Of a stretch of DNA of 64,000 bases, positions 11,901 through 59,166 are shown in pieces; within the stretch, counting starts at the first letter, position 1, and each line of letters begins with the position of its first letter. The stretch spans positions 386,332-450,331 of the forward strand of contig JBAZNR010000001.1 in assembly GCA_041649175.1 (NCBI GenBank), given 5' to 3'. The notes under the pieces are model-generated. The model was given only the letters and a program-made list of their open reading frames with translations. It was not told where the DNA came from and ran no database searches. A program made the translations under genes and the position numbers. Source of the stretch: Candidatus Omnitrophota bacterium. GTDB lineage: Bacteria; Omnitrophota; Gorgyraeia; Zapsychrales; JBAZNR01.

Positions 11901-14900
11901 CGATAAGCGGATACGCTGCCGCGCCAATGGCTATCGAAGGCTTGTCCGACGTTAACATGAACGCCTTTAACCGGTGAAGCTTCTACCATCCAGGCAGGTT
12001 TTCCATCCACAAAACTAAAGGTTCCCTTAAAAGATTTGTATTGAATTCCGGCTGTCGTTCTGTCGAGCGTTTTTCCGCCTTTAAGATCAGCCGCCTGTTC
12101 AACACTGATGGTGATAGGGCCAAGATCTAATCCGGCACCGGCAACGCCATGAAGTTCTTTTGTTTTTCCCCAAAGATCATCGGTGCCAAATTGTTCGCTA
12201 AGAATAGAAAAGTTTAAAGTTAAGTTATCCGAAGCCTGAAGCTTGAAGGTCGCCTTCTCAAAACTATATTGATCTTGGGCTTTTAAGGCAACGTCGGATC
12301 TGTTGACAAGAATGCCCGTAAGACCGTCAAAAATTTCGATACGAGAATTAACATTGCCTTCGGATTGAGCAAGGCCGGCTTCTAAAATAACATTGGTGCG
12401 CCCGCTGGTGGAAATATCCAAAATACCGTTTAAGCCGGTAATGCGGTCCAGATCACCCTCATATTCTTCAACGCCCTGGCTTTTTTTGTTAATTTTTAAT
12501 TCATTGGAACGATATGTTTCGGCTTGGAAAATACCGCTAATGCCTAAATAAACGGTATTGGATTTATTATTCACGCCGATATTCTGGATCAAAACGAAGT
12601 AACGGCTGGTTTGTGTTTCAGTGTACCCATCGATAGGCCACTCATTGAAGCTGTAGCTTTGCATTTTTCCGGCGATGGTCTTGGAAATCAGTGTCGCTTG
12701 TTTATTGGTCAGGTCAATACCGACTAAGGCGTATTTAGAACCCATTCCAAGCGCTTCCGGCTGGACCTGGCCGACAAAGGCGTTGACACCGCCAACACCT
12801 AAGCTTTTTAAAATATCAAAAGCGGCGATCTGATTGGACGCGGAAACAATGGGTTTACCATCGCTATCGGTAAGCCGGTTAATAACAGATTGCCAAACTT
12901 GAGGAGCGGTTTGATTATTGAGGGTGAATTGATCGAGGTTAACCAGAGGAACAACTTCGCCTAAGACGTGTAAATTGCGGCCGACGCGAACAACCGCCGG
13001 AGGGGCGTGTTCAAGAGTCGCTAAATATTCTTCGAGCGCTTTGACCAGATTTTCTTTTTCCCCGATGGATAATGTATCGTTGGCATTGATCTGAACGGCA
13101 ACGCGCTCTCTTATTTCGCCTAAGATGCGGTTATATTGTTCATTGCCTTTTAAATAGCTTTCAAAAACGGCGGTAGCGGCATCATTGGCTTCTTTGGAAT
13201 TTTGTTCGGCATTATGAACCGCGCGAATACCCTGCATTTGCTGACGAGTTCCTTGAGCATGATCGCCTAAACTGCTTAACATATTTCCGAGCGGATCGCG
13301 TCCGGCGCCGGTGCGGTCATTGATGCGTTTAATGGATTCTTCTATTTGTTTGGTCCAATAATCTTTGTATTCTTCAACGCTGGCAGAATCAGAACCGATA
13401 TGAGAGAAGATATCATTGAACGCGTATAACCGTCTTAACAATTCAAGGCGCTCACTCTTATAGTTAAGCTGATTGATGTAGAATTCCAATTTTCTCACAA
13501 TAACATCAATAATGGATTCTTCGTTGGTATTGCCCGTCTGGAACAATGAATCTGCTGTTAAGTCCGGATATCCAAATTGGATGATATGCTCCGCTTCGCG
13601 TTCGTAGTTATGGGCGAGGCTGCCGGCTAAAGATCTTACTTCGACTAAAGAATCAGGCAGGCTGTCTCTTAAGGCATTCCAGAATGCAATGCTTTGCGGA
13701 ATGCTTTCTTCAACCGCCGGGTCAAGCCTGTCATTGTAATAATCTCTGGTTTCAGGGATCGTGTACACGCCAAAGGGACGTTTGCTATCTGCCGGCCAAG
13801 TCAAAGGAGAGATAGGAAGCAATAAGTGGTAGCTAACGGTCGTATTATTTAAGGCGTCGTTGATGATACGAATGGTATTTTCTTTCCAGGCGATATAGTC
13901 AATTTCAATGTCTCTTTTAACGGTTAAGATCTCTTGAGGCATTTCAAAGAAGGCAGGAGCAACAGCGTATTCCATGGCATCATTAGCCACTCTGTCTCTT
14001 TGTCTTTGAACAATACCAATACCGACTTGTGTATTGTGGATCATATCCACTGTTAATTGATGCCATGCGCCCTGTTGTCCGCGAGACACGATTTCTTGGC
14101 CTTGCCAGAATGGTAAGGCTTCATTAATACGCTGGACAGCTCCCATGACCGGCGCGTTAGGCGTTTGATCATCTTCATCAAAGTAACGAAACGCGGACGC
14201 AATGGAATCTTCCGGCATAAGGATATTGGCATAAGATAAGCTGTCGCCTCGTTCAAGCCAGATATTAAGCGTATCTAAATAACCAAAATGACGGGCTAAA
14301 TCAGCATTTGCTGAATCAAGTGTTGTATCGCTCCAGCTATAAATATCAGAGATCGGGATGATCGTTCCTTCATGATTCCTAAGGTGATTTAAGTTCTCTA
14401 TGAGGATATCGGTTCTATCAACATCAGCTTCGAGGCTGTCGAGATCAGAGGCCTTAATAATTCCTGAGCTTGAATCCATGGCCGCAAAGTATTCTTGGCG
14501 TAATCCGCGAATTGCATTGTCCGCGCCCAATGTATCGGCTTGGACTCTAATATCAGCCAATAAAGAATCGAATGTCATCTCACGAGAGGTCGCTACTTCG
14601 TGAATGAAATGATAGATATTTAATTTGGAGGAAAGCTTCACTTGTTCTTCCGGTATGGCTCTCATGATCTCATTAAAGCTAAGCCCTTGTTTTCTTAATC
14701 CTTCTTCAATGTCATTTGAGCGCAACTGAATATAAGCAGAATCGGCTTCTTGAGAAAGAAGTTGAGCATTATCAAATTGGCCGCGAAGCGAATCAATAGC
14801 GGATCTTTCTACCGCTAATTGTCTGGCTAATTGTTCTAATGAAGCGCTGTTCAATCCGGCTAAAGATAAGACTTCATCTAATTTTTCTACATCCGCTGAC

Positions 14901-44965: not shown

Positions 44966-45104
44966 TCTGTTCTCCATATGGTTTTGAAACACCATTGTCC
45001 AATCTGGAATAAACTAAAATGGCACCATTTTTACCAAACGCCAATGAGCTGAAAAAATCCATAAAATGAGAAATCTCCGGCAACAAATCCGGAGATCGGG
45101 ATAT

Positions 45105-45360: not shown

Positions 45361-45393
45361 ATTATAAATATAACATTGTAATAGGATGTGTCA
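45361..45393 (-). promoter_or_regulatory. Candidate promoter (TTGACA-15/16-TATATT) reading toward the terminator at 45,221-45,261. Together they would define a candidate small RNA or leader unit of about 130 nt.
   Basis: On the minus strand TTGACA sits at 45,388-45,393 and TATATT or ATATTT at about 45,366-45,372. The downstream RNA holds only a 14-codon ORF (MRPAKPREKEVSEF). Confidence 0.2.
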
Positions 45394-45795
45394 ACTTTTT
45401 ATTTCCTTGATTTGGAGCAAAAGTGTCTATTTTTCAATGACTTATGAAATAAATAAAAAATAATTTATTTTTTTTGGAAATTATTCCCAAAAGCGAATTT
45501 TTCTTATGAAAATGTTTTAAAAAATGTTTAATAACATCCGGTGTTTGAAATAAAAAATTGACGGTGTTTTTTTATTTTACGCTTTCCGTCATGATCAAAA
45601 AAGAGAGAGAAAATGAGAAGAACGTTATGAGAAAAACTATACTTCCGTCGGAATACTACACTTTTCCGACGGAGAAATTGTTTTCCGCTTGATGATCCAT
45701 TTTCGTTTTTAGTCAGGATCTTTCTGGAAATCTACGACAAGAAAAATGAACTGATGCGAAAGGAATATATTCGTAATCCATGAACGCCTGCGTGG

Positions 45796-45895
45796 ATAAA
45801 TTCGTGGAAATATTGCACGAATTTATATAGATTGGACATTAAATAAATATGATTGGACATTAATCTCTGTGTAATTATTCTAATTTAATGTCCAA
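45796..45895. promoter_or_regulatory. Cluster of likely protein-binding motifs just downstream of tadC. An 11-bp perfect inverted repeat ATAAATTCGTG-9-CACGAATTTAT lies at 45,796-45,826. Three copies of TTGGACATTAA follow, two direct (45,832-45,842 and 45,853-45,863) and one inverted (45,885-45,895).
   Basis: Read directly from the sequence. A degenerate copy, GATTGGACAAT, lies 20-30 nt upstream of the giant-gene start codon at about 44,993-45,003 on the minus strand. Confidence 0.35.
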
Positions 45896-45909
45896 AGATA
45901 TATATGAAT

Positions 45910-46815
45910 TTATCGTTTCTGTGAAGCGCCGCCAACCAAATTCTTCATAGGATTGTTCTGCATGAAATCCAAGAATATGGGAGCGCCAACGAGAATAGCA
46001 ACAACGGGGAAAATGAAAAGCAAAAGAGGAACAAGCATTTTTAAAGGAGCTTTGAGAGCTACTTGCTCGCCACGGCGAAAGCGCGCCAGGCGCATATCTT
46101 CCGATAGGATATTGAGCGCCTCGGCAACCGAGGTTCCCATTCTATCCGCTTGGATAAGCGTACGGGTAAACGTGGTTAGATCCGGCAGGTCGTATTTTTT
46201 GGACAAATCGCTTAGGGCATTGCGGCGCGACTTTCCGACATTGATCTCCTGCATGATCAAATTCAGCTCATCCGCTAAAGCCGAAGGCGGTGTTTTCTCA
46301 ATGACCCATTTTAAGGCCAACATAAAATCAAGGCCGGCATTAACGCATAAGCCTAGAAGGTCAATGGTGTCAGGAAGCTGTTTGACGATAGCATTTTTGA
46401 CTTTACTGATCTTTCCTTTAAGCCAAAACTCCGGCAATATATAGCCAATGGCAAAACCCATCAGCGATGTAAATAGGATCACATCTGCCTGAATAAAGGG
46501 CAAAGTTGCCCCCAAAAGCCCTCCAATGATAAGCTCTTTAATGAGCAAGAATTCTTCGGGAGACATATCAACCTTGGCTAAAGCTAAATCCTTTGAAATA
46601 CGGGCCCCTAGAGGGCCAATACACAGCGGTTTATTGAACATCGCCAAACCCTTAATAAGGGCTCGCGGAGCATCTGTCCATTTCTTCTTTCTATCGGTTG
46701 CGGCTTTTTCGTGAACCAAAGAAAGGGTAGGGCGAAGCACCTGGTCAAAAGGCAAAATGGCATAAGCCAGAAGCACTCCGGTAGCAAAGGCTAAAATAAG
46801 GATGACAATTTGCAT
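45910..46815 (-). CDS. tadC: Tad/Flp pilus assembly inner-membrane protein TadC-like (T2SS-F family)
   Basis: A 301-aa ORF with the GspF/T2SSF-type layout of TM helices and a cytoplasmic helical domain. It lies immediately after a paralogous T2SSF gene, matching the tadB-tadC order. Confidence 0.75.
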   Translation of the reverse strand: MQIVILILAFATGVLLAYAILPFDQVLRPTLSLVHEKAATDRKKKWTDAPRALIKGLAMFNKPLCIGPLGARISKDLALAKVDMSPEEFLLIKELIIGGLLGATLPFIQADVILFTSLMGFAIGYILPEFWLKGKISKVKNAIVKQLPDTIDLLGLCVNAGLDFMLALKWVIEKTPPSALADELNLIMQEINVGKSRRNALSDLSKKYDLPDLTTFTRTLIQADRMGTSVAEALNILSEDMRLARFRRGEQVALKAPLKMLVPLLLFIFPVVAILVGAPIFLDFMQNNPMKNLVGGASQKR

Positions 46816-46837
46816 TATTTTCTCACCAGTTAGTTAA

Positions 46838-46966
46838 TTTCCAATAACCAAATGCCAATGACCAGATAAACTTCAATAACCAATTTTCTAATTTCCAAAC
46901 GTTTTTAACATTGATTATTGATAAATTGGGAATTATCTGGATGTTGAAATTTGGTCATTGGTTATT
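46838..46966 (+). repeat. MITE-like intergenic repeat, copy A, about 130 bp, with imperfect terminal inverted repeats (aataaccaa..caatgacc / ggtcattggttatt)
   Basis: It fills the whole tadB-tadC spacer. Its first 100 bp are about 88% identical to copy C at 52,069-52,165 and it is the reverse complement of copy B at 47,915-48,040. The shared core is ccaaacgtttttaacattg. Confidence 0.6.
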
Positions 46967-46969
46967 ATC

Positions 46970-47827
46970 CTAAAAATCCTTAAACGTACTTATTTTCCAT
47001 ATCAAAAATGCTCCGACGAGCTCGGAGGCGACAGCGTACATCAAAAGCATTTTCCCAATATCGGAATTAAACATCTGGTCAAAGAAATTCTTATTGGTCG
47101 CTGTCACAATAAAGGCAAAACCAATAGGTAAAAGCGACATAACAACGCCCTGAATTCTTCCTTGCATCGTTAAATTATCCAGGTTTTGTTTTATCTTTTT
47201 ATTCTCCCGGATAACGCCGATGATGCGGGCAAAAATGACGGGTAAATTACCGCCGGTTTCCCGGGCTAAAAGAATAGCCGTGATCATCTGATTTAAAGCG
47301 GTGGAAGGCACCCGGTCATAAAGGTGCGCGAACGATTCTTCTAAAGACACGCCCATTTTATTCTCGCCGAGCAAAATGGCAAATTCCTGATTAATAGGGT
47401 CCGACATTTCTTCGGTGACCACTTCGATAGCTTGAATAAGGCTTAAGCCGCCGCGCAAAGAGCTTGACATGATCATCAGCGCGTCAATGAGCTGATCATT
47501 GAATTTATCCATTCTTTTTTCTGCTAAAACCTTGATCCAAAGCCCCGGGCCGATGAGGCCTAAAAATACGCCTAAGCCTAAACCAAACCAGCGAAATTCC
47601 GTCGGAGCGACAACAAATCCGGCTACCGCGCCGATCACAGGCGCGAATGTATAAAGCACCACAATACGGTTAATTTTTGAGCGCATGAACATGCGGTCCA
47701 TTTTATCGGAAAGTCCTTTGGCGCGTTTTTGATTGATCTGCATAGCCAGATTAAAAGCGGAAGGGGCAATGACCCATGTTAAAAGGCCGGCGGCAGAGAA
47801 GATGAGCAGCATAATAAAAAGACGCAT
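46970..47827 (-). CDS. tadB: Tad/Flp pilus assembly inner-membrane protein TadB-like (T2SS-F family)
   Basis: A 285-aa ORF with the T2SSF-like domain (...LDALMIMSSSLRGGLSLIQAIEVV...) and N- and C-terminal TM helices. Confidence 0.75.
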   Translation of the reverse strand: MRLFIMLLIFSAAGLLTWVIAPSAFNLAMQINQKRAKGLSDKMDRMFMRSKINRIVVLYTFAPVIGAVAGFVVAPTEFRWFGLGLGVFLGLIGPGLWIKVLAEKRMDKFNDQLIDALMIMSSSLRGGLSLIQAIEVVTEEMSDPINQEFAILLGENKMGVSLEESFAHLYDRVPSTALNQMITAILLARETGGNLPVIFARIIGVIRENKKIKQNLDNLTMQGRIQGVVMSLLPIGFAFIVTATNKNFFDQMFNSDIGKMLLMYAVASELVGAFLIWKISTFKDF

Positions 47828-47914
47828 GGTACTATTTTTGCTTAAAGCCTTTCAAAAATCAACTTTAATATGGAAAATTAACTTTGCGGGTTGTGGGGAT
47901 GCATTATGAGTTTT

Positions 47915-48040
47915 GGTCAATGACCAATCACCAAATTCCAACATCCAGATAATGTTCAATTTACAAATAACCAATGTTAAAAACGTTTGAATATTGATTA
48001 TTGGAATTTGTTTGGTGATTGTGTTTTGGTTATTGGAATT
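47915..48040 (-). repeat. MITE-like intergenic repeat, copy B, in inverted orientation
   Basis: Its reverse complement aligns base for base with copy A (...attccaataaccaaa...caaacgtttttaacattgg...attatctggatgttggaatttggtgattggtcattgacc). It lies between the Cys-rich pilin gene and tadB. Confidence 0.6.
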
Positions 48041-48048
48041 TCAGAAGT

Positions 48049-48567
48049 CTACTGGCAGATATTATCATCCGCGTTGATGCAGTCTTCAATGCAGTTTTGT
48101 TCTTCGGTCAATTCGCAACTTCGTTCGCAATCTCCGTGAAATTGGCTGGGATTACCGTTGGATTGGTTGCACCGATCACGACAGATCGTTGCGCATGCCG
48201 GATCGTAAAACATGCTATCAGGATCACAGAACATATCATAACAACCGTTGAGACAGGCTTGATAGTGGTTATAAAGCCCTCCTTCACAGCCAGACACGCA
48301 AGACGTGTGGATGGGATCATAACAAGCATTGTAGCATTGCAGGCTATACCAGCCTTCGTGCTCACCTTGAGCCCAAAGGCATTCGGTTGTTTTTTGCGGG
48401 TCATACTGGCGGCCTTCGCTGAACACTTCCGACGCTGATTTCCAGCGCCCGGCAAGTCCGCGCAAAATATATTTTTGCATTAACAGAATCGCACCGATCA
48501 TTAGAATGATCAAGGCGACATATTCTAAAGTTGAAGCAGCTTTTTTTTGACAAAAAAATTTAATCAT
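48049..48567 (-). CDS. TadE-like pseudopilin with a cysteine-rich C-terminal domain (172 aa, about 22 Cys)
   Basis: The N-terminus KKAASTLEYVALIILMIGAILL matches the TadE/Flp-type class-III signal and hydrophobic stem. The C-terminal half is packed with CxxxC and CxC pairs. Confidence 0.6.
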   Translation of the reverse strand: MIKFFCQKKAASTLEYVALIILMIGAILLMQKYILRGLAGRWKSASEVFSEGRQYDPQKTTECLWAQGEHEGWYSLQCYNACYDPIHTSCVSGCEGGLYNHYQACLNGCYDMFCDPDSMFYDPACATICRDRCNQSNGNPSQFHGDCERSCELTEEQNCIEDCINADDNICQ

Positions 48568-48570
48568 CGT

Positions 48571-51500
48571 TTACCATTGGCATTGGTCGCTAAATTTGAC
48601 ATTAAATCCCCAGGGATTGCCGTTATGCCAGAAATATTCCGCGCAAGATAAAGACATGACCCCGTGAGAAAGCAAGCTTTCGGCGCGCGCCCGGCAATCG
48701 TCATCCTTCACCATAAAAGCACCCTCAGTCGGAGTATCGAGACAACCACTTAAACTATTGATATTGCCGACAGAAGCAGGGCCTTTTTGCGGATGAGAAA
48801 ATGACATACCCCAAATCGGCATGGCATTAGCAAATCGAAATGATAAGTCTTTATCCTGATCCCAGCGGGTGACACGCACTTTTACTTTGCCGCCTTTGAA
48901 ACAACCCGTATGATGATACTCGTCTTGTTCATTGCACCAACTCACCTTGTCATATACATCACCTACTGAATTACAGCGGTGTTGATTAAATGTCCCGTGG
49001 ACAGAGTTCTTTACTCTTGGCCAGTCCGGTTCAGGAAGTCCAGGTCGTCCGCATCCGCCATCACAGCGCGTTGGTATCTTGGCTTCTACTCTCACAATAT
49101 GCCAACAACCCTTTTCTGAGCCGTCCGGATTACGCCCGCATCCTTTATCTGTTTTCCATCCATAGATCGCGTAAGGCGGCAAAGAAGGAATATCGCCCAG
49201 AAGAGAATCTTCGACGCTGCTAATGCCATTGGGGAGGTTGGCTGTTGTTAAAAACTCACTGATCTTTGTTCGCGCGTCAGCAAGTTTGGTAGCAGCATCA
49301 CCGGCTTTTGTATAGGCATCGCTTAGAAAATTGTAACGCTGTTGATATTTTTCCCTTAAAAGCGCTATATGTTCTAGAAATCCTGGATCAGCGCACTGCG
49401 GCCAAATACCGTTAACTGTATCGTATCCTAACGTGTTGTTGATAAAGTGAGTATTGAACAAGTGGCACGGCGTGACATCGCCGGAAGCATTACAGCTGTT
49501 ATAGCAAGCCTGCAGCATTTCAATGGTTCCATTGCCGGCGGGATTTTGGTAACAGCTAAGAACTTGCGGAATAATAGGAACACCCGGATAAGGAGCGATA
49601 TTATTATTGATCCACGTAACATTATTCGGACAAAATACCGATCGCATGCCTTCTGAATCCCAATATCCATGATACTGGCTATTGCCGTTGCGCCATCCGG
49701 ATAATTTTGCCCGCCACATATTTAAAGGCCCGGAGGCTTTCGCTAAGTCATAAAGAGCATTTCCATTAGAATTATCAATCCAGGTCTTAGCCTCATTATA
49801 CCAATCGTTAAACGAACTATAAATATCCTCGGGTGGCATGGCTAATGTTTTGGTGGCCCACACAATAAAATCATCCGTTGTTATTTTCATTTGGTCTAAG
49901 GAATCTTCCGGCCATTCGGAGGCGGGTGTGCCTGGGCTAGCGCTAAACGCATCCTCACAAGACTGATTGGCGGCGCAATGATCCGGATTATCATCATGAT
50001 CTAGATCTGCCGAGGGATCTAAGCAGCTTGGACAATCCCCCGGGCAATGTTTTCCGACACAGTTTTGATTATACGGCCACGTTTCTGAACAAAACTGATC
50101 ATCACCGCGTTTCCACTTAGGCCTGCTTCCGGTACAGGGAGCAGGCCCGAGATCCGCGTTGGTGACACAGCGGTCTTCTTGAGCGATCACGCATGTGGCA
50201 TTATGAATATTATCAAAATAGGCATCATCGTCCTGGTTTGTCGTCGTTAAACAACAGCTTTCTCCGGAACAATTTCCCGTAAGCGAAAGGCGCCCGACGG
50301 CATCAAAACTATCGCATCCCGGATAACGCGCATCACACCAAAAACACCCCTCGGGATGGTCCGGATTATGACTTGTATTATTTTGCAAATATGTCCGGTC
50401 GGCAACTTTCCAAAGGGCCGGAAATAAGCCGGTGGCATCTTCCGCGCGGTATTTTCCCATCACGTCACTAATCTGAGGATTGTTGTAGTTTCCCGGCGGG
50501 GAAGTTTTAAGCAGAGGATTTTCATCGTCGTGACCGAGAATTTCTCGAAAAGACTTAAAAGCATTGTTGCCGTTTTCATAAATGGGATCATAGACATAAG
50601 GCCAAGAAGTTGCCGGACAGGAGCTTGAGGGATCTTCCGTCGCATTGCAACGCAGTTCAGCTTCATCTTCCGTGCAGCATTCCGGGCGGATCTCTTGAGT
50701 AACGCCACGCCTCCACCACCCACCGCCAACAGGTATTGTCACCGTTTCTTCCGGCAAACAACAACAATTGCATTCCGCAGGACGGTTAGGATCCGTCACA
50801 TTGCAACAAGCATGCTCGCCGGCAGACTGCTGATGCGTATTTCCATCCGTACAGGTTGGCGTAAACGGATCCCACATGCCCCAATCATCATCGTGCACCG
50901 TTCCGCTTCTATCGGTATAAGATTCATAGATCAACTTTGAAAGAAGATCCTGAAACTGAGCAATTTTTTCAATATTTTCTAAACGCTCCTCCACCACATC
51001 AGAATTTTCTTGGATTTCCCGAACACGATTAGCATAATAATAACCGAACCGATTGGTTTTATCTCCTACGGAATCATCTGTCCCGCACCGATCACAAACT
51101 CCGTCCATATCTTCATCGAGATTATCTGGCATTTCTTTATTATCATCCACCACATTTTGAATCCCCATAAGGATCCCACGCTCTAAAAACTGGTCTTGCT
51201 GGGTCATTTTAGGAAACATCTTATTATAAAATTCGCTTAAACCGGGTTGAAGGACAGCAACAGAAAGAACGAAATTGATAGTAGCTCCGGCAAGCCCGGC
51301 ACCAGCCGAAATAGTCAACACTGTGGCTGCTTGTATAGCTGCAGGTGTCGCAGCTCCCGCCGTAAAGATAATAACGGCAATCAAAATAATCGCTGCTATA
51401 ACCAAAGTCGTTAAGTTCCTAAGAAAATTATGATCGGTCCCGCAAACATGCAAGTCCGCGCCGCCGTCTAAAACGTATTGATACAAATACTGCGAATAGC

Positions 51501-51720
51501 TGGCGATCTCAGATGCCAAAAACGCCGCGCCCAAATTAGCCGCGATGGTCACCTGCGCTTTTGTTTGCGCCACGCGCCCCAAATTCATCACCACCGCCAA
51601 AAAGATGATCAAAACCGCGGTGATCAAAATGAGGATAAGCGCCACTTGCCCTAAGCGTGCGTGCTTTGGCTTGATCGGCCTTAACGGATGAAGCAGTCTA
51701 TTTAAAAATTGAAAAATCAT
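48571..51720 (-). CDS. Giant TadG-like pilus-associated protein (1,049 aa) with a Cys-rich extracellular region
   Basis: The N-terminus RLGQVALILILITAVLIIFLAVVMNLGRV matches the TadG/TadE-like N-terminal motif. It is followed by a large Cys-rich segment (CCNVTDPNRPAECNCCCLPEE, CDRCGTDD...). Typical TadG is about 500 aa. Confidence 0.6.
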   Translation of the reverse strand: MIFQFLNRLLHPLRPIKPKHARLGQVALILILITAVLIIFLAVVMNLGRVAQTKAQVTIAANLGAAFLASEIASYSQYLYQYVLDGGADLHVCGTDHNFLRNLTTLVIAAIILIAVIIFTAGAATPAAIQAATVLTISAGAGLAGATINFVLSVAVLQPGLSEFYNKMFPKMTQQDQFLERGILMGIQNVVDDNKEMPDNLDEDMDGVCDRCGTDDSVGDKTNRFGYYYANRVREIQENSDVVEERLENIEKIAQFQDLLSKLIYESYTDRSGTVHDDDWGMWDPFTPTCTDGNTHQQSAGEHACCNVTDPNRPAECNCCCLPEETVTIPVGGGWWRRGVTQEIRPECCTEDEAELRCNATEDPSSSCPATSWPYVYDPIYENGNNAFKSFREILGHDDENPLLKTSPPGNYNNPQISDVMGKYRAEDATGLFPALWKVADRTYLQNNTSHNPDHPEGCFWCDARYPGCDSFDAVGRLSLTGNCSGESCCLTTTNQDDDAYFDNIHNATCVIAQEDRCVTNADLGPAPCTGSRPKWKRGDDQFCSETWPYNQNCVGKHCPGDCPSCLDPSADLDHDDNPDHCAANQSCEDAFSASPGTPASEWPEDSLDQMKITTDDFIVWATKTLAMPPEDIYSSFNDWYNEAKTWIDNSNGNALYDLAKASGPLNMWRAKLSGWRNGNSQYHGYWDSEGMRSVFCPNNVTWINNNIAPYPGVPIIPQVLSCYQNPAGNGTIEMLQACYNSCNASGDVTPCHLFNTHFINNTLGYDTVNGIWPQCADPGFLEHIALLREKYQQRYNFLSDAYTKAGDAATKLADARTKISEFLTTANLPNGISSVEDSLLGDIPSLPPYAIYGWKTDKGCGRNPDGSEKGCWHIVRVEAKIPTRCDGGCGRPGLPEPDWPRVKNSVHGTFNQHRCNSVGDVYDKVSWCNEQDEYHHTGCFKGGKVKVRVTRWDQDKDLSFRFANAMPIWGMSFSHPQKGPASVGNINSLSGCLDTPTEGAFMVKDDDCRARAESLLSHGVMSLSCAEYFWHNGNPWGFNVKFSDQCQW

Positions 51721-51730
51721 TATGTATTTC

Positions 51731-52060
51731 CTATTCTATTTCCTCTTCCGAACCGTCATCCGGAGGAGTGTCCCAGCCGTTAAAAACAAGATTCATGTCT
51801 GTCCCATCGTAGAAATCTGTTTGTAGCTGGCGCAAAGGCCCCGACATTGGGGAAGTGTCCCAATTTGAACCTTCGTTCACGAATCTGTCCGATAAGCTTT
51901 GATCATGCGCGATGCGCCGTTCGGCTAAACTTACTCCCGCCCATTGAAACGCCTTAATACAGCCGTAAATAATAAGCAGGATCATAATGAAACAAAAAGT
52001 GAATTCCATTGTCACTTGGGCCTGTTTGTTGCAAGATTTCTTAAAAATGGGACTTATCAT
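51731..52060 (-). CDS. TadE-like pseudopilin. The ORF track starts it at a TTG at 52,081, inside repeat C. An ATG at 52,058-52,060 (MISPIFKK...) is more likely.
   Basis: The TadE-like N-terminal motif is NKQAQVTMEFTFCFIMILLIIYG. The C-terminus is acidic. Confidence 0.55.
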   Translation of the reverse strand: MISPIFKKSCNKQAQVTMEFTFCFIMILLIIYGCIKAFQWAGVSLAERRIAHDQSLSDRFVNEGSNWDTSPMSGPLRQLQTDFYDGTDMNLVFNGWDTPPDDGSEEEIE

Positions 52061-52068
52061 ATTTAAAG

Positions 52069-52165
52069 TTCCAATCACCAAATTCCAATGGCCAGATAAA
52101 TTTCAAAAACCAATTTTCTAATTTCCAAACGTTTTTAACATTGTTTATTGAAAATTGAATATTAT
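52069..52165 (+). repeat. MITE-like intergenic repeat, copy C, apparently 3'-truncated
   Basis: ttccaatcaccaaattccaatggccagataaatttcaaaaaccaattttctaatttccaaacgtttttaacattg... is about 88% identical to copy A. It sits upstream of the small TadE-like gene. Confidence 0.55.
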
Positions 52166-52228
52166 TTGGTTATTGTTGCTTGTATCCTGCCTGCCTGCCG
52201 GCGAGGCAGGGTTATTTTCTTTTCTTTA

Positions 52229-53752
52229 TCACTTCACCGGATTAACATCATCCACCGGCGTTACCCATTTACGACCGCCGCTATCGGCAATAGCGCTTCG
52301 GACATAAAGCATTTTCTCAGCCTTGTTATAACAAGTTTGATTAAGATTTGCCTCTGACGAACATTCTCCCGCATTGGCCACGCAAACTTCAACAGCCGGA
52401 TTATCACAACCAGGATTCCAAGCACATTTATCGCCGTGGCTTCCGCAGCTGTCTGATCCATAGTTACAATATTCCGAATCATTAGGATTGAGATCAAGGC
52501 AACCATGCCGCGCCCAAAAGGGAACTTCTCCACAGGCCTCGTGGATATTATCATCTCCGGCTAAACAATTCCACATACGCCCCGTATCGTTGCTCAGTTG
52601 AAACTGCCGTTCAATAACATCGGTACAGTTTCTTTTTTGCGTATGACGAGTATATTGCTTGTCATCGTCATACAACTTTCCCTCTTCAACGGACATATGT
52701 GTTCCCTCAAAACACACCGAACGAATATAACTGTCTTGCTGAAATCCGGGGCGAGTTCCTTGCGGCCGTCCGGTAGCAGCTGTCGCCGGCGTATAGCCGC
52801 CACGCTCATCCCAAGTATTGTACGTTGTATCGATATCCCCATCCTGATAATCCATCACGTAAAACGTTTCAATGTTTGAAGTGCCTCCTTGGCAAATGGT
52901 ATCTAGGCCGCCGGTGTTACGCATGGTGGCAATGGCATCGCATTTTCCGTCGAAACCGCAGGCTTTTTGCACAAATTCTTCTTTTAAATCTCCGTCTAGA
53001 TCCAGCGAAATATTTTTTCCTTTATCAACATCGACACTGCCGCGTCTGATATCCACCGGTTTCCATTGCCAAGAAAACCTGCAGCGGGTGATGGGGACAC
53101 CTTCTACATCCGTATCTCCGTCCCTATCGAGATCGAAACGTTCATTTATTTGCGCGGCATTACAACTGCCTCGTCCTTCCGAACAATACGGGGAAGCCGC
53201 CGGAGCACAAAAACTATCATCCGCATTAACGATCTTCGTGTAAGCAACGGGGCATCCGATATTACCCGGCAGGCACATTTCATTCCATCCGAAATGGGGA
53301 TTGCCCGAAGCACCCGGAACTTGGATGATCTTAAAAGAAGCAGTAGAAAAATTGAATTGTTTTCCGTTAATATGAATGTCTTGAACAGGTATTTGTTCTG
53401 TATGCCCAAAGTCCGTTCCCATAAATAAATTGCGGGTAAATGTGCCTGTTCCGCCGAGAATATACGGCGTGCGGGAGCTGGAGCCGTATTTACCAGTTTC
53501 TACCGTTTTTCTATCTTCAATAAAAAGAACGCTGGCTGTATTGCGGGATGTGTTATTGGCTTGTCCGGAAAGAAATGAATTTTGCAAAGCTAAGCGCATG
53601 GCGCCCAAAGACTGATTTTGCACATAATTAAAATTGACCGCGTAGCGGATCATAGCCCCGAGGACAAAAATGAGGATAGCGCCAAAAATGGCCAACTCAG
53701 TGACTGTTTGGGCTTTTGGTTGGGCGAAAAACTTCTTTATTCTTTCTCTCAT
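52229..53752 (-). CDS. Large TadE/pseudopilin-like protein (about 507 aa) with a Cys-rich and Asp-rich ectodomain. The start is probably the ATG at 53,749-53,751 (MRERIKK...). The ORF-track start at 53,818 (TTG) would overlap flp7.
   Basis: The N-terminus KAQTVTELAIFGAILIFVLGAMI matches the TadE/Flp-type motif. The ectodomain has many Cys residues and Ca-binding-like D-x-D-x-D runs (DLDRDGDTD, DLDGD). Confidence 0.6.
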   Translation of the reverse strand: MRERIKKFFAQPKAQTVTELAIFGAILIFVLGAMIRYAVNFNYVQNQSLGAMRLALQNSFLSGQANNTSRNTASVLFIEDRKTVETGKYGSSSRTPYILGGTGTFTRNLFMGTDFGHTEQIPVQDIHINGKQFNFSTASFKIIQVPGASGNPHFGWNEMCLPGNIGCPVAYTKIVNADDSFCAPAASPYCSEGRGSCNAAQINERFDLDRDGDTDVEGVPITRCRFSWQWKPVDIRRGSVDVDKGKNISLDLDGDLKEEFVQKACGFDGKCDAIATMRNTGGLDTICQGGTSNIETFYVMDYQDGDIDTTYNTWDERGGYTPATAATGRPQGTRPGFQQDSYIRSVCFEGTHMSVEEGKLYDDDKQYTRHTQKRNCTDVIERQFQLSNDTGRMWNCLAGDDNIHEACGEVPFWARHGCLDLNPNDSEYCNYGSDSCGSHGDKCAWNPGCDNPAVEVCVANAGECSSEANLNQTCYNKAEKMLYVRSAIADSGGRKWVTPVDDVNPVK

Positions 53753-53759
53753 CAATATT

Positions 53760-54086
53760 TTATTCTCCGGCCACGGCGGAAGAGCCGCGGGTTCGCTCGA
53801 CACTATTTGAAGAATCAATACGAGTCGTCACTATTCCGTCTTCTCCATTCACTGTTGCGTTACTTGTTGTGATCCAGCTCACAGCGTCGGAAGTGATCGT
53901 ATGATTAATATGAGTATTCATCAGCGTCGGGTCATATTGCTCGCCTAAATTATCCACCGATTCTTTCCAGTTTCCCTGAATACCACGCTTCACATAAGTA
54001 CTGACCGCCACAAAAGCCCCTAAAATAATGATGATCAAAATCGCGTATTCCAAAGTTGTCTGAGCCTGATGTTTTTTTATGCGCAT
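53760..54086 (-). CDS. flp: Flp-type pilin paralogue 7 (108 aa)
   Basis: The N-terminus KKHQAQTTLEYAILIIIILGAFV fits the Flp motif (x)QxTxEY plus hydrophobic stem. Its stop lies 7 nt before the next gene. Confidence 0.65.
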   Translation of the reverse strand: MRIKKHQAQTTLEYAILIIIILGAFVAVSTYVKRGIQGNWKESVDNLGEQYDPTLMNTHINHTITSDAVSWITTSNATVNGEDGIVTTRIDSSNSVERTRGSSAVAGE

Positions 54087-54880: not shown

Positions 54881-55011
54881 TGCGGCGAAATTCTTTTCAA
54901 TAATTTCGCCGCACTCGTCGAGGTTCACTTTCTTCGTCTACAAACGTAGATGAAGAAAGTGAAAAAACACACATGGCTTACCCGAAGGTTTTTCTCTCCG
55001 GGTAAGCCATG
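54881..55011 (-). terminator. Three consecutive strong hairpins between flp4 and flp5, acting as an attenuator or partial terminator inside the operon
   Basis: At 54,972-55,011 a 13-bp stem catggcttacccg / cgggtaagccatg is followed on the minus-strand RNA by UGUGUUUUUU. At 54,926-54,961 there is a 16-bp perfect stem cactttcttcgtctac-aaac-gtagatgaagaaagtg. At 54,881-54,913 there is a 12-bp perfect stem tgcggcgaaatt-9-aatttcgccgca. Confidence 0.55.
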
Positions 55012-56471: not shown

Positions 56472-56504
56472 GAAAAAAAATCTCCGGAAAAATTTTCCGG
56501 AGAT
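56472..56504 (-). terminator. Rho-independent terminator after the 827-aa gene on the minus strand
   Basis: A perfect 9-bp stem atctccgga-aaaatttt-tccggagat (56,480-56,504) is followed on the minus-strand RNA by U8, seen as aaaaaaaa at 56,473-56,480 on the plus strand. The same ATCTCCGGA/TCCGGAGAT stem recurs at 45,073-45,096 in the giant-gene leader. Confidence 0.6.
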
Positions 56505-56682
56505 CACAATAGCTCCTTAAAAAATCATTAAGTAACGTGATGCAATATGTGTGAACAACGCTTGGTACCTTCATCATTTCTCCGTGGCTTAAGAAACAAT
56601 GAGACTTTGACTAAAATGGTATTACCTTTAATGCGTTATAAATATAACACATACAAAAAACAGGCGCAAGCACTTGTTTGGG

Positions 56683-59166
56683 TTAATTTTTCTCCTGATT
56701 TTCGATGCGGATTTGAAGCTTGCACCCCAAGGGATCACGCACATCGCTTTCGTTAAGGCGCGCCAGGGCATATTCCAGGTCTTTGCGGTAAAGATGGGTT
56801 GGGGGAAGAACAAGGCTCACAATGATACTATCCTTGCTCCTTTGAACAGAGCCGGATATTTGGTAAAAACGTTCTCTGATATCAGAAAAATTAAGCTTTT
56901 CATAGTGCAGTGGAAAGAAATGGCGCTGGCAATAGTTATTGAGCGCCGATAGAAGAAACTCAATATTCGTCTCCAAAGACGGCTCAGCCCTCAAAAGATT
57001 GTATTGGCCTCCTCCTTCTAACAAGTTAACTCGGTCATGGGACGGAGTAACGCTCACAACTCCATAAGAAGCTTTTTCGGTCCGGGCGGTAAAATCCTGA
57101 TAACTTTCTTGAAAGTTTGGCCAGCGAGCAAGAAAAGCGGCGATTACATCTTCCGCCGACATTTCTTCCGAAAGGATATTGGTGACGATCGCCATCACCG
57201 GCCAGTCTAAGGCGCTATCACGCAAAAGAAGGGCTCTCACGCGCGTTTTTTGCCCAATGAGCGGTTGTTCCAGTTTTGTTTTAAGTTCGCTGTAATACAC
57301 TTCTTTTCCGACGGAATCACAATAAAAATGATTGATCAAGCGCGCGTCTTCTTCGATAAATTTTCTGCATTCTTCCTGCCAGGGCCAGGCGCCGGCCATA
57401 AAAAGCCTTCGTTTGGCCGGAATAGCCGTAAACTTGGCGATCTCTTCTTTGTTGCCGTCAAAAATACCGATGCGGGATATGTTTTTTCCGGATGAATTTT
57501 CGAAACTTAAAAAAAGCTCATAGAACTGTTTCGCAAAACTCTTGTATCCGGGAATACTATTAATAATAACGGGCTGAACATTGCTAATGATATTTGAAGA
57601 AAGAGACTCAATGATCTTGTTCATGGGCATCGTAAATGCAGATTGAACATTATTTTCATTCCAAATCGTTTGAAATTGCCCGTCGACGCATATTTCAGAT
57701 TTATCCTGCGCTGTTATCTTGATATAGCTTATTTCAGAAAATGTCTGCGAGTACTCATTGGCCATTTGCATGGAAAGACTTTTGAGATTTTGAACGCTGG
57801 TGGTTAGTTTTTCTAATATTTCCGCGTTAAGATGTTGTTTTTGTTTGATGCCGTTGATCCCCCAAAGGCCGTCTTGGGTATAATTCTTAATATCCCCGAT
57901 TTTCTTAATATTAAACGCCGGAAAATATAAAAGCACTTCGCTGGCTAAATTGATATCGACCGGCAAATAAACTTCACTATGCTTGCTTAAAAGTCCGCCG
58001 AGCATAGACGCGTTCGATAACTGCCACTGGGCGGCTTTTAAAAAGAAACATCCCATCCCATCCCAAACGGGAGGTTTTTCTCCCGAAATAATTTCCGGCT
58101 TCTTTTCCGGAGAAAAATATTCCGCTTCCGGAGTCCATATTTTGTCATCAGAAGAGGCGGCCGGTTTTGGTGTAGCTTCTTTTGGCTTCTCTTCTTTGGA
58201 AGTTTCTTTCCCGGCAAAAGGATCGGCTAGTAGGGGGCTTTCCTGCGGAACCGTTGGCGCGATTTCCGGCATAGATTCCGGAACACTGTCCACAACAGCT
58301 TCGGGAACAGCCTCCGGTGCGGCTTCAGGAGCAGCTTCAGGAGCAACTTCAGGCACAGCCTCTGGCGCGACTTCAGGAGCGGCTTCAGGAGCGGCTTCAG
58401 GAGCAGCTTCAGGAGCAACTTCAGGCACAACTTCCGGGACAACTTCAGGGGTAATTTCCGGCGCAGGCTCCGGTACGGGTTCTGGGACACTTTCTTGAGG
58501 CGCGGGTTCAATTTTCTTTTCGGGAATAGATTGTTTTTCTTCCACGATCGGCGCTTGAGCCATAGGATCCGGAAGAAGTGAAATATATTCTTGCGGTTCT
58601 TCTTGTTCCGGTTCCAAAATAGGCAAAATAGGCTCTGTGGCGCTGGGCTCTTTCTCTATTTGAACTTCCTTAGAAATATCAGCTAGGGCTTCCGACTTCA
58701 CTTCGGTCAGATCCGGTAAAATAATGGGAGGTTTTTCGGAAGACTTTTCAGGAAGTTTTTCCTCTTTGGACATTTTTTCTTGCGAGGCTAAGTCTATTTT
58801 TCCAAGTTCCACGGAAATATCTTTATTTTTTGACGGTTCGACCGGAAATTGCTCTTTCGTAACCGAAATTTTTGGCGGCTCGTCATGAACAGAGAGCAGT
58901 GCTTGTTTTTCCGTAAATAATTGTTCTTTTCTTTTTTCGGGAATCTTGAATTTCTGCGGCTTGCCTTCTTTTTCGGCCCTTCTTCCGACGGGACTGCTAA
59001 GAGCTGAACTTTTCAGAATGGCGTTGACGGAGGATTTGGAAACTTCGCATTGAAATTTTTCGCGGATCAAATCGGAGATCTTGCGGCAGCTAAGATCGGG
59101 ATTATCCCGTTTTTGCGTGACAACAAAATCAATAACTTCCTGTTTTAATTTGTAAACAACACCCAT
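56683..59166 (-). CDS. 827-aa protein with an N-terminal HTH, a long Pro/Glu/Ala-rich region (including a PE(A/V) tandem repeat) and a C-terminal domain of unknown function, possibly transposase-derived
   Basis: The HTH-like N-terminus is ...LSCRKISDLIREKFQCEVSKSSVNAILK. A Pro/Glu/Ala-rich segment about 250 aa long includes the uninterrupted tandem repeat PEVVPEVVPEVAPEAAPEAAPEAAPEVAPEAVPEVAPEAAPEAAPEAVPEAV. The C-terminal 450 aa contain an RW...E...K stretch, AAFLARWPNFQESYQDFTARTEK, that loosely recalls the DDE-transposase YREK region. No TIRs were seen. Confidence 0.55.
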   Translation of the reverse strand: MGVVYKLKQEVIDFVVTQKRDNPDLSCRKISDLIREKFQCEVSKSSVNAILKSSALSSPVGRRAEKEGKPQKFKIPEKRKEQLFTEKQALLSVHDEPPKISVTKEQFPVEPSKNKDISVELGKIDLASQEKMSKEEKLPEKSSEKPPIILPDLTEVKSEALADISKEVQIEKEPSATEPILPILEPEQEEPQEYISLLPDPMAQAPIVEEKQSIPEKKIEPAPQESVPEPVPEPAPEITPEVVPEVVPEVAPEAAPEAAPEAAPEVAPEAVPEVAPEAAPEAAPEAVPEAVVDSVPESMPEIAPTVPQESPLLADPFAGKETSKEEKPKEATPKPAASSDDKIWTPEAEYFSPEKKPEIISGEKPPVWDGMGCFFLKAAQWQLSNASMLGGLLSKHSEVYLPVDINLASEVLLYFPAFNIKKIGDIKNYTQDGLWGINGIKQKQHLNAEILEKLTTSVQNLKSLSMQMANEYSQTFSEISYIKITAQDKSEICVDGQFQTIWNENNVQSAFTMPMNKIIESLSSNIISNVQPVIINSIPGYKSFAKQFYELFLSFENSSGKNISRIGIFDGNKEEIAKFTAIPAKRRLFMAGAWPWQEECRKFIEEDARLINHFYCDSVGKEVYYSELKTKLEQPLIGQKTRVRALLLRDSALDWPVMAIVTNILSEEMSAEDVIAAFLARWPNFQESYQDFTARTEKASYGVVSVTPSHDRVNLLEGGGQYNLLRAEPSLETNIEFLLSALNNYCQRHFFPLHYEKLNFSDIRERFYQISGSVQRSKDSIIVSLVLPPTHLYRKDLEYALARLNESDVRDPLGCKLQIRIENQEKN
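58230..58500. repeat. Near-perfect 9/18-bp tandem DNA repeat encoding the PE(A/V) array (gcttcaggagcRgcttcaggagca...)
   Basis: About 15 units are seen directly. This explains the artefactual ORFs 57983..58498(+) and 58227..58511(-). Confidence 0.7.

Follow-up and report, generated by a model that had tools for sequence, protein, structure and literature searches.

The stretch of DNA considered here, hereafter called the window, comprises 64,000 nucleotides (nt) from a Candidatus Omnitrophota bacterium (assembly GCA_041649175.1, contig JBAZNR010000001.1, positions 386,332 to 450,331 of the forward strand). It carries a minus-strand cluster of pilus genes in which three spacers are occupied by copies, named A, B and C, of a short palindromic repeat. 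The label of tad operon, given by the original prediction made on this DNA, is correct for this cluster. It is justified by the genes found upstream, which encode a secretin with an RcpC-like neighbor, a fusion ATPase of the ParA-like/T2SSE type, a Flp pilin and pseudopilins with class-III signals, and by the T2SSF genes. The TadB protein of the window matches at 100% a type II secretion system F family protein from a Candidatus Omnitrophota metagenome-assembled genome. The orientation of the repeat is defined by its asymmetric core, CAATGTTAAAAACGTTTG: in A and C this core is read on the mRNA-sense strand, whereas in B it is carried by the antisense strand. In the direction of transcription, the region is organized as follows:

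52229-53818, minus strand: g529, conserved gene upstream of copy C
52066-52186, minus strand, oriented as A: copy C, in the g529-g92 spacer
51731-52009, minus strand: g92, conserved, function unassigned
48571-51720, minus strand: g1049, conserved, function unassigned
48049-48567, minus strand: g172, conserved, function unassigned
47911-48041, plus strand, inverted with respect to A and C: copy B, in the g172-TadB spacer, 7 nt past the g172 stop codon and about 85 nt ahead of the TadB start; its core has the CAATGTTAAAAACGTTTG orientation on the plus, antisense, strand
46970-47827, minus strand: TadB-like platform gene (T2SSF, 285 aa, PF00482, E 3e-15), bracketed by A and B
46836-46966, minus strand: copy A, a 131-bp imperfect palindrome filling the TadB-TadC spacer; its first base lies 3 nt past the TadB stop codon (TAG, 46972-46970) and its last base 20 nt ahead of the TadC start (46815); its core reads CAATGTTAAAAACGTTTG on the minus, mRNA-sense, strand
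45910-46815, minus strand: TadC-like inner-membrane platform gene (T2SSF, 301 aa, PF00482, E 4e-15)

All three copies sit in non-coding spacers between minus-strand genes and together span 5.3 kb. The three-copy repeat announced in spacers of the tad operon is therefore present, at essentially the coordinates given to it, and the bracketing of tadB by A and B holds, since these copies flank the T2SSF gene 46970-47827 in opposite orientation. The end of copy C had been placed at 52165, but the copy runs on to about 52186. Its inner part is 87% identical to copy A, and its outer 5′ arm on the sense strand, GATACAAGCAACAATAACCAAATAAT, is a different module, common to the copies of a related locus described below (L128). 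Copy B is devoid of 8 nt (GGAAATTA) beside the core.

Two observations concern the surroundings of copy C. A mechanical open reading frame (ORF; 51731-52081, minus strand) starts at a TTG codon, TTG-52081, located within the copy. Because the alignments of g92 homologues begin at residue 1 of the 92-aa protein initiated at ATG-52009, the TTG-52081 start is probably spurious. In addition, a GC-rich stem-loop (CCTGCC...GGCAGG, 52190-52210) follows the g529 stop codon, ahead of copy C in the direction of transcription. This structure, which does not belong to the repeat family, resembles a terminator only when read on the plus, antisense, strand. Another GGCAGG-rich stretch of this sort is found in the TadB-TadC spacer of another locus (L145).

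Using BLASTN, A (46830-46972) and C (52060-52175) were found to share 87.4% identity over 111 nt (E 2e-34), in line with the value of about 88% proposed earlier. A also matches the reverse complement of B (47908-48048), with 78.6% identity over 131 nt (E 7e-28). The inversion of B with respect to A, described over about 125 bp, is thus recovered over 131 nt, but the identity is only about 79%, below that of the A-C pair. Both values stand above 60%, the identity under which a careful alignment was to disqualify the repeat. A repeat search of the window returned the same family of three copies, with A and C 91% identical over 89 nt without gaps, and with two inverted A/B pairs, one of 85 nt (84%) and one of 56 nt (79%). 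The nhmmer E-values of the window copies range from 6e-43 to 2e-32, and the profile built from the three copies detected no fourth one within the 64 kb. An exact run of 36 nt is common to A and C. The conserved core that had been noticed corresponds to a 19-mer, CCAAACGTTTTTAACATTG, exact in A and C and present with one mismatch on the opposite strand in B. Its matches are confined to these three sites in the 64 kb window, for a chance expectation of 0.09.

One may ask whether this similarity reflects chance in low-complexity, AT-rich spacers, or an artefact of assembly. Such spacers, being AT-rich and internally repetitive, do inflate weak matches. However, the matches observed have E-values from 1e-28 to 1e-43 and include the 36-nt exact A/C run, and none of 100 dinucleotide shuffles gave three core matches. 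Moreover, an independent Logan assembly of a public run yielded a 5.3-kb contig, L001, that contains copy B at 100% identity and that stops, at its two extremities, within A and C, in their common run of 36 nt. The repeats are thus not an artefact of one assembly, and they are long enough to break a k-mer assembly. Finally, a model built from the window copies only recovered the family in another genome, at L128. Chance or artefact is extremely improbable, and we regard it as already refuted by the E-values, the shuffles, the Logan assembly and the L128 matches.

The six copies now known, three in the window and three in L128 (L128a, L128b and L128c), are AT-rich imperfect palindromes of 121-165 bp. 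Their arms consist of two inverted arrays of degenerate heptamers (5′ TAACCAA..., 3′ ...TTGGTTA) placed around the short asymmetric core. TTG motifs are spaced by 7 nt in 29/38 intervals of the 3′ arms, and CAA motifs in 28/44 intervals of the 5′ arms. Arrays of period 7 are reported by Tandem Repeats Finder in the L128 copies and not in the more degenerate copies of the window. Copy C and L128a have an identical terminus of 26 nt, and the ends are thus constrained. Further period-7 arrays exist in L128, at 5632-5650, 6187-6211 and 12003-12055 (CAAAAGG, TTTTGAA and 5.7 units of TAAGAAC), and they suggest a general abundance of heptamer repeats in that genome.

The folding capacity of the copies is uneven. 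On the sense strand, copy A forms a hairpin of about 50 bp with a minimum free energy of -39.9 kcal/mol (z -5.4 to -5.8). Copy B folds less well, reaching -34.2 kcal/mol when read on the plus strand and -28.7 kcal/mol in the mRNA sense. Copy C hardly folds (z about -1), its arms being poorly complementary, and is a decayed or chimeric copy. At the other extreme, L128c gives a near-perfect hairpin (-64.0 kcal/mol, z -10.7). [quoted passage not shown] The imperfect terminal inverted repeats attributed to the element are therefore a property of A and L128a-c; they are weaker in B, and in C the complementarity has been lost. The small size and the lack of coding capacity are also those of a MITE: no ORF spans any copy, the longest stop-free stretch has 43 codons with no usable start, and gene callers put no ORFs on any known copy. 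In Rfam 15, the copies give only sub-threshold chance matches (E 0.25-0.73), with bit scores far below the gathering cutoffs.

Ten orthologous loci, L126-L130, L133, L141 and L143-L145, were obtained through TadB homologues. The order g529-g92-g1049-g172-TadB-TadC is kept wherever the contigs reach: five loci contain the six genes, and each of the five shorter ones has a collinear subset of them. The idea that the repeats could reflect a recent rearrangement of the locus does not fit with this conserved order. The repeat family was recognized in one of these loci, L128 (GCA_040960315.1), where the model built from the window copies gave three matches (nhmmer E 2e-15, 8e-15 and 4e-13). The copies there, of about 155-165 bp, are longer than those of the window. 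The profile search did not find the family in the nine other loci (L126, L127, L129, L130, L133, L141, L143, L144, L145). The short contigs for P0004-P0008 are devoid of it. The TadB proteins of the window and of L128 are reciprocal best matches (64% identity) and group together in a rough tree. When closer relatives were sought, the nearest TadB was 66% identical, and the relative nearest to L128 was the window itself. As judged from these proteins, L128 is the closest sampled relative of the window locus. The five junctions between the six genes compare as follows:

J1, g529-g92: 219 nt in the window (copy C), 93 nt in L128
J2, g92-g1049: 10 nt in the window, 241 nt in L128 (copy a)
J3, g1049-g172: 3 nt in the window, 214 nt in L128 (copy b)
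J4, g172-TadB: 221 nt in the window (copy B), 5 nt in L128
J5, TadB-TadC: 154 nt in the window (copy A), 175 nt in L128 (copy c)

Only J5 is occupied in both, and the gaps of 3 nt (g1049-g172) and 10 nt (g92-g1049) in the window are at junctions that hold the element in L128. In the nine loci free of the family, the corresponding spacers can be as short as 3-60 nt. In L141, for instance, J4 and J5 have 24 and 12 nt. The J4 spacer measures 5-62 nt in seven complete orthologous loci and 24-62 nt in those without the family, while in the fragment L143 it contains 169 nt of unrelated sequence. Filled and empty sites can thus be opposed, as in the insertion polymorphism of MITEs, with the reservation that the relatives compared are at the level of genera rather than strains. 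From the differing occupancy of the junctions and the short spacers of the family-free loci, it follows that the copies are insertions, most of which were made independently in the two lineages. Furthermore, identity between copies is 65-95% within a genome and 56-63% between genomes, and reaches 94.5%, with an exact run of 55 nt, for the L128b-L128c pair. New copies thus arose, or were homogenized, after the lineages split. On the basis of these identities, even the J5 copies common to the window and L128 have been replaced or homogenized since then. The mobility ascribed to the repeat in the original prediction, which called it MITE-like, is consequently borne out as far as insertion and continuing turnover are concerned, with different junctions occupied in two genomes, both orientations represented and nine loci devoid of the family. 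At the level of sequence comparison, the junctions show a family that spreads by insertion into short spacers between co-transcribed genes.

How the copies were made may be envisaged in another way. In a purely local process without transposition, heptamer arrays resembling the short tandemly repeated repetitive (STRR) sequences of cyanobacteria would expand by slippage, and template switching or gene conversion would then carry them from one spacer to another. The arms are indeed degenerate heptamer arrays, and other period-7 arrays (TAAGAAC x5.7, TTTTGAA, CAAAAGG) lie in L128 spacers. The copies are clustered within about 5 kb in both genomes, target-site duplications were not found in their flanks, and the identity of L128b with L128c, including its 55-nt run, is what gene conversion would give. 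However, a core that is not repetitive recurs in all copies, and their heptamer variants follow one another in the same order, which points to descent from one template and not to independent slippage. In addition, a block of 125-165 bp was placed precisely into spacers that have 3-10 nt elsewhere, leaving the genes undamaged, and once in inverted orientation, so that an event of the insertion type is needed. Finally, the family has been kept in two lineages with TadB proteins of only 64% identity. We therefore hold the purely local process to be unlikely.

Several results nevertheless weigh against a mobile family of transcribed hairpins. In the flanks of the six copies, no consistent direct repeat or target-site duplication could be read, and the ends of the element are not sharply defined; the TAA/TTAA-like strings near the L128 copies correspond to the chance expectation for AT-rich flanks. 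No transposase or longer parent element with matching ends was noticed in the window or in L128, this negative result covering Pfam scans of 17 window proteins other than the giant ORF described below and the precomputed gene table of L128. All six copies are found in the same block of five junctions, from g529 to TadC, and none in the other spacers of the two clusters. With about ten further junctions per cluster (our count from the ORF and gene tables), the Fisher probability would be about 0.02 per genome (hand calculation). Such clustering could reflect spread within the locus, or a role specific to it, instead of mobility across the genome. Searches with an 18-mer core, CAAACGTTTTTAACATTG, gave no related sequence, either in the species-representative genomes (185,579) or in the metagenomes (241 million records); the source genome itself gave no match in these scans, which are accordingly silent on its other copies. 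At the RNA level, the paired columns of an RNAalifold consensus are almost invariant, which makes covariation uninformative for or against a role of the RNA, and although G-U pairs outnumber A-C pairs (28 vs 17) on the strand defined by the core, the difference is not significant.

The matches obtained with the 18-mer, at 23 loci of the species-representative genomes, 101 of the metagenome contigs and 4 of the viral contigs, were discarded as chance because similarity ends within about 18-35 nt of the core in every case. The arm pattern of the L128 type gave 0 matches in viral contigs. A further Logan contig, L140 (8.1 kb), adds 2.5 kb past the window without any copy. This contig shows (8000-8117, corresponding to about 58400-58520 of the window) an end located inside an 827-aa gene, at a low-complexity coding repeat with PEVVPEVVPEVAPEAA-like units.

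Considering the evidence on both sides, it is rather probable that the copies are small palindromic repeats, non-autonomous and specific to one clade, which form a family of the ERIC (enterobacterial repetitive intergenic consensus), Correia or MITE type, have arms resembling the heptamer arrays of cyanobacterial STRRs, insert into intercistronic spacers and are co-transcribed as long hairpins. By analogy with these systems, we infer a non-autonomous repeat that would be mobilized in trans by another enzyme. Transcription of the copies is deduced from their position inside an operon without terminators: all of them are between co-directional genes, and on the sense strand from 54793 to 45910 no terminator-like site was seen beyond weak intragenic matches. 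The copies themselves were also considered as promoters or terminators. Neither role was retained, since the promoter search in the copies gave only weak 9-of-12 matches, none of them convincing, and since no U-tract follows the hairpins on the sense strand.

Once transcribed, the intact copies would fold into RNA hairpins of 45-70 bp starting a few nucleotides past the upstream stop codon (the six copies start 3-27 nt beyond it). These hairpins may be substrates of RNase III and/or barriers to 3′ exonucleases, and their cleavage or protective effect would uncouple the stability of the upstream message from that of the downstream one. Cleavage by RNase III and/or protection of 3′ ends is the effect that we infer as likely by comparison with known repeats, and a role as RNA-processing site or attenuator, already put forward for these copies, would be of the same order. 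Cleavage of Correia-containing transcripts by RNase III and altered stability of ERIC-containing mRNAs have been reported (PMC10969869, PMC2649163), and STRR hairpins have been proposed to raise transcript stability or to affect translational coupling (PMC2670836). A MITE, Chunjie, is also described as inserted into an operon without disrupting it (cited in PMC10969869). The effect of the present copies may well be close to neutral.

The same junctions contain other palindromes in other lineages. L130 has a family of its own, AACCTACGCGGTTT...AAACCGCGTAGGTT, at 748-804, 4817-4966, 6356-6416 and 7446-7592, that is at J2, J3, J5 and in the spacer after TadC, before the giant gene. In L127, copies of a GC-rich palindrome (4257-4295, 6041-6105, 11533-11594, 12678-12728, 13024-13069) are unrelated to the L130 family or to that of the window. 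L126 carries a palindrome with a stem of 25 bp at J5 and half a copy after TadC; a link with the neighboring IS30-like transposase was rejected, this insertion sequence having its own unrelated inverted ends of 15 nt. Strong unrelated hairpins are also present at J5 in L133, L143 and L145 (z -6 to -9.5).

Small genes of the selfish type are found as well in or next to the orthologous operons. At J1 of L126, a gene of the 23S_rRNA_IVP family is flanked by 49-nt inverted repeats of periodic CGAA motifs, and a HepT/MNT toxin-antitoxin pair stands between TadB and TadC in L127. A PDDEXK_3 gene, a Fic gene and a BrnT/CopG pair were also encountered. The insertions of this type are located at:

L126, 4800-5281
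L126, 1703-2071
L127, 10895-11523
L128, 12051-13106
L129, 3343-3910

These surroundings bear on another explanation, in which the copies would not be selfish repeats but selected, operon-specific cis-regulatory hairpins setting the product amounts of the distal Tad block. They would serve as processing sites, as stabilizers or as arrays for an oligomeric RNA-binding protein reading UUG every 7 nt, and different lineages would supply the same need with different sequences. The confinement of 6/6 copies to the five g529-TadC junctions, with none in the other spacers of the clusters, would be accounted for, as would their position 3-27 nt past the upstream stop codon, the strict 7-nt period of the motifs and the common orientation of 5/6 copies relative to transcription, although this last bias is not significant. 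Such a role would also agree with the unusually stable J5 hairpins of unrelated sequence (z -8.9 in L126, -6.4 in L133, -5.2 in L130, -9.5 in L143, -7.2 in L145), with the L130 family at J2, J3, J5 and after TadC, and with the L127 family at or near J2 and after TadC, its other copies being inside genes. However, the junctions of L141 are nearly free of spacer (12 nt at J5, 24 nt at J4) and J5 of L129 is unstructured (z -0.4), which indicates that the hairpins are dispensable. With C decayed and B inverted, exact structure or strand is apparently not maintained, and no informative covariation was seen. Besides, species-specific palindromes filling many operon spacers are normal for selfish repeats of the REP or ERIC type. 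On balance, selected regulatory hairpins appear unlikely.

A more ambitious version can be imagined, in which the hairpins would be a functional, recurrently acquired feature of the Tad/giant-gene locus of Omnitrophota, their 7-nt UUG/CAA arrays being read by RNase III or by an oligomeric RNA-binding protein, as HutP or TRAP read spaced triplets, which would set the stoichiometry of the pilus platform. It seems quite doubtful. If true, platform proteins set in this manner would accompany a giant predation-associated protein, and palindromes without relation to one another would have been taken up at these junctions by different lineages. Two readings of the block may thus be kept: either it is an insertion-tolerant hotspot sampled by each genome's own repeats, or hairpins are favored there.

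Several consequences, of modest practical weight, can be drawn. Omnitrophota are ultra-small, probably predatory or parasitic bacteria with compact genomes. No small palindromic intergenic repeats were described for them in the literature searched, although this kind of element is well known elsewhere. In practical terms, the repeats break short-read assemblies in the Tad/giant-gene locus, as exemplified by L001, and they can create false start codons or N-terminal extensions in gene calls, as with the TTG of g92 in copy C. They may uncouple the expression of neighboring pilus genes. With palindromes or small selfish genes peculiar to each lineage recurring at these junctions, the locus stands out as an insertion hotspot, where the turnover of repeats can be followed in uncultured bacteria by simple comparison.

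Other features of the locus deserve mention. Directly downstream of TadC, the minus strand is open without interruption over positions 1-45013; this single frame has at least 15,004 codons and runs off the left end of the window. Its probable start is the ATG at 44977 or 44965. At the same position, the orthologous locus L135 has a called gene of 85,803 aa, and giant genes of Omnitrophota have been associated with Tad/T2SS cassettes (bioRxiv 10.1101/2023.11.21.568195, PMC10066038). Just past the TadC stop codon, two or three occurrences of a conserved box, TTGGACATTAA / TTAATGTCCAA, are seen in 7/9 loci scanned and in the window; among the nine, this arrangement is missing in L126 and L130. 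A further box, TGGACATT, overlaps or adjoins the start codon of the giant gene (ATGGACATT). The boxes are positioned as follows:

Window: 45830-45900 and 44957-44965
L127: 12870-12910
L128: 13385-13421 and 14257
L129: 3942-3982
L133/L135: 11911-11991
L141: 2477-2545

The complementarity between the upstream boxes and the one at the start codon suggests that they form an operator pair, or that a long-range pairing masks the start of the giant gene. The 900-nt spacer between TadC and the giant gene also contains a near-consensus promoter of the sigma-70 type (45367-45394, minus strand; TTGACA, 16 nt, TG-TATATT; 11/12 matches), and the giant gene may have its own promoter. Two copies of one terminator-like hairpin (GATCTCCGG...CCGGAGATT followed by a T-run) were found on the minus strand, one just upstream of the giant-gene start (45072-45097), the other after the 827-aa gene and before the Flp pilin gene (56479-56505). 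Finally, three lineages have in common a long terminator-like hairpin whose stem (GGCTTACCCGG... / ...CCGGGTAAGCC) is conserved: the window (54972-55011, minus strand), L126 (1579-1633) and L133 (3098-3146). From our reading of the gene tables, it follows a pseudopilin gene in all three lineages, which suggests a conserved terminator or attenuator splitting the cluster into sub-operons.

The repeat family can finally be compared with known systems. One possible likeness is that TTGGTCA, one of the STRR units, also occurs in the arms of the present copies, and the tandem 7-bp units and hairpin in an intercistronic spacer seen in STRR-like repeats are found here as well (29/38 and 28/44 intervals). 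In cyanobacteria, STRRs are hairpin-forming 7-bp units of intercistronic spacers such as hupS-hupL (PMC2670836). Heptameric intergenic repeats sit nearer to the upstream ORF (PMC4692102), as do the copies described here. However, STRRs belong to another lineage and consist of plain tandem arrays in which no unique core is conserved and the variant units have no fixed order, whereas here a whole unit of 125-165 bp is repeated.

[quoted passage not shown] In contrast, REPs are G+C-rich sequences of 20-40 nt with a 5′ GTAG, whereas the copies studied here are, by inspection, strongly AT-rich and devoid of the GTAG motif, and they are 3-5 times longer. The Rickettsia palindromic elements (RPEs), mentioned in PMC10969869, are AT-rich, have about 100-150 bp and spread in small genomes of host-dependent bacteria, as here. 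RPEs are, however, often in frame inside coding genes, whereas all present copies are strictly intergenic.

Like the present copies, the Correia elements of Neisseria (CREE/NEMIS) are small palindromes, of about 100-155 bp, whose ends are inverted, and they are often transcribed together with their neighbors. RNase III cuts or binds their hairpin RNA (PMC2649163, PMC10969869), the mechanism proposed here. Correia elements carry defined terminal inverted repeats of 26 bp, outward promoters and an IHF site, and they duplicate a TA target; for the present copies, neither a TA duplication nor a convincing promoter was seen. A similar size is found in ERIC, also called intergenic repeat unit (IRU), an imperfect palindrome of 127 bp compared with about 125-130 bp here, in both cases palindromic over the whole length. 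ERICs are present at 30-700 copies per genome, whereas the six copies here were counted in two loci only. They have been reported to affect the stability of the mRNA that carries them (PMC10969869). Like ERICs, the repeats of the tad operon are non-coding, lie in either orientation in transcribed intergenic regions, within operons or in 3′ untranslated regions, and vary in presence and absence among related genomes. Since they come from another phylum, and since their arms are heptamer arrays, homology is not expected, and the likeness concerns the way in which the element works rather than membership of the family.

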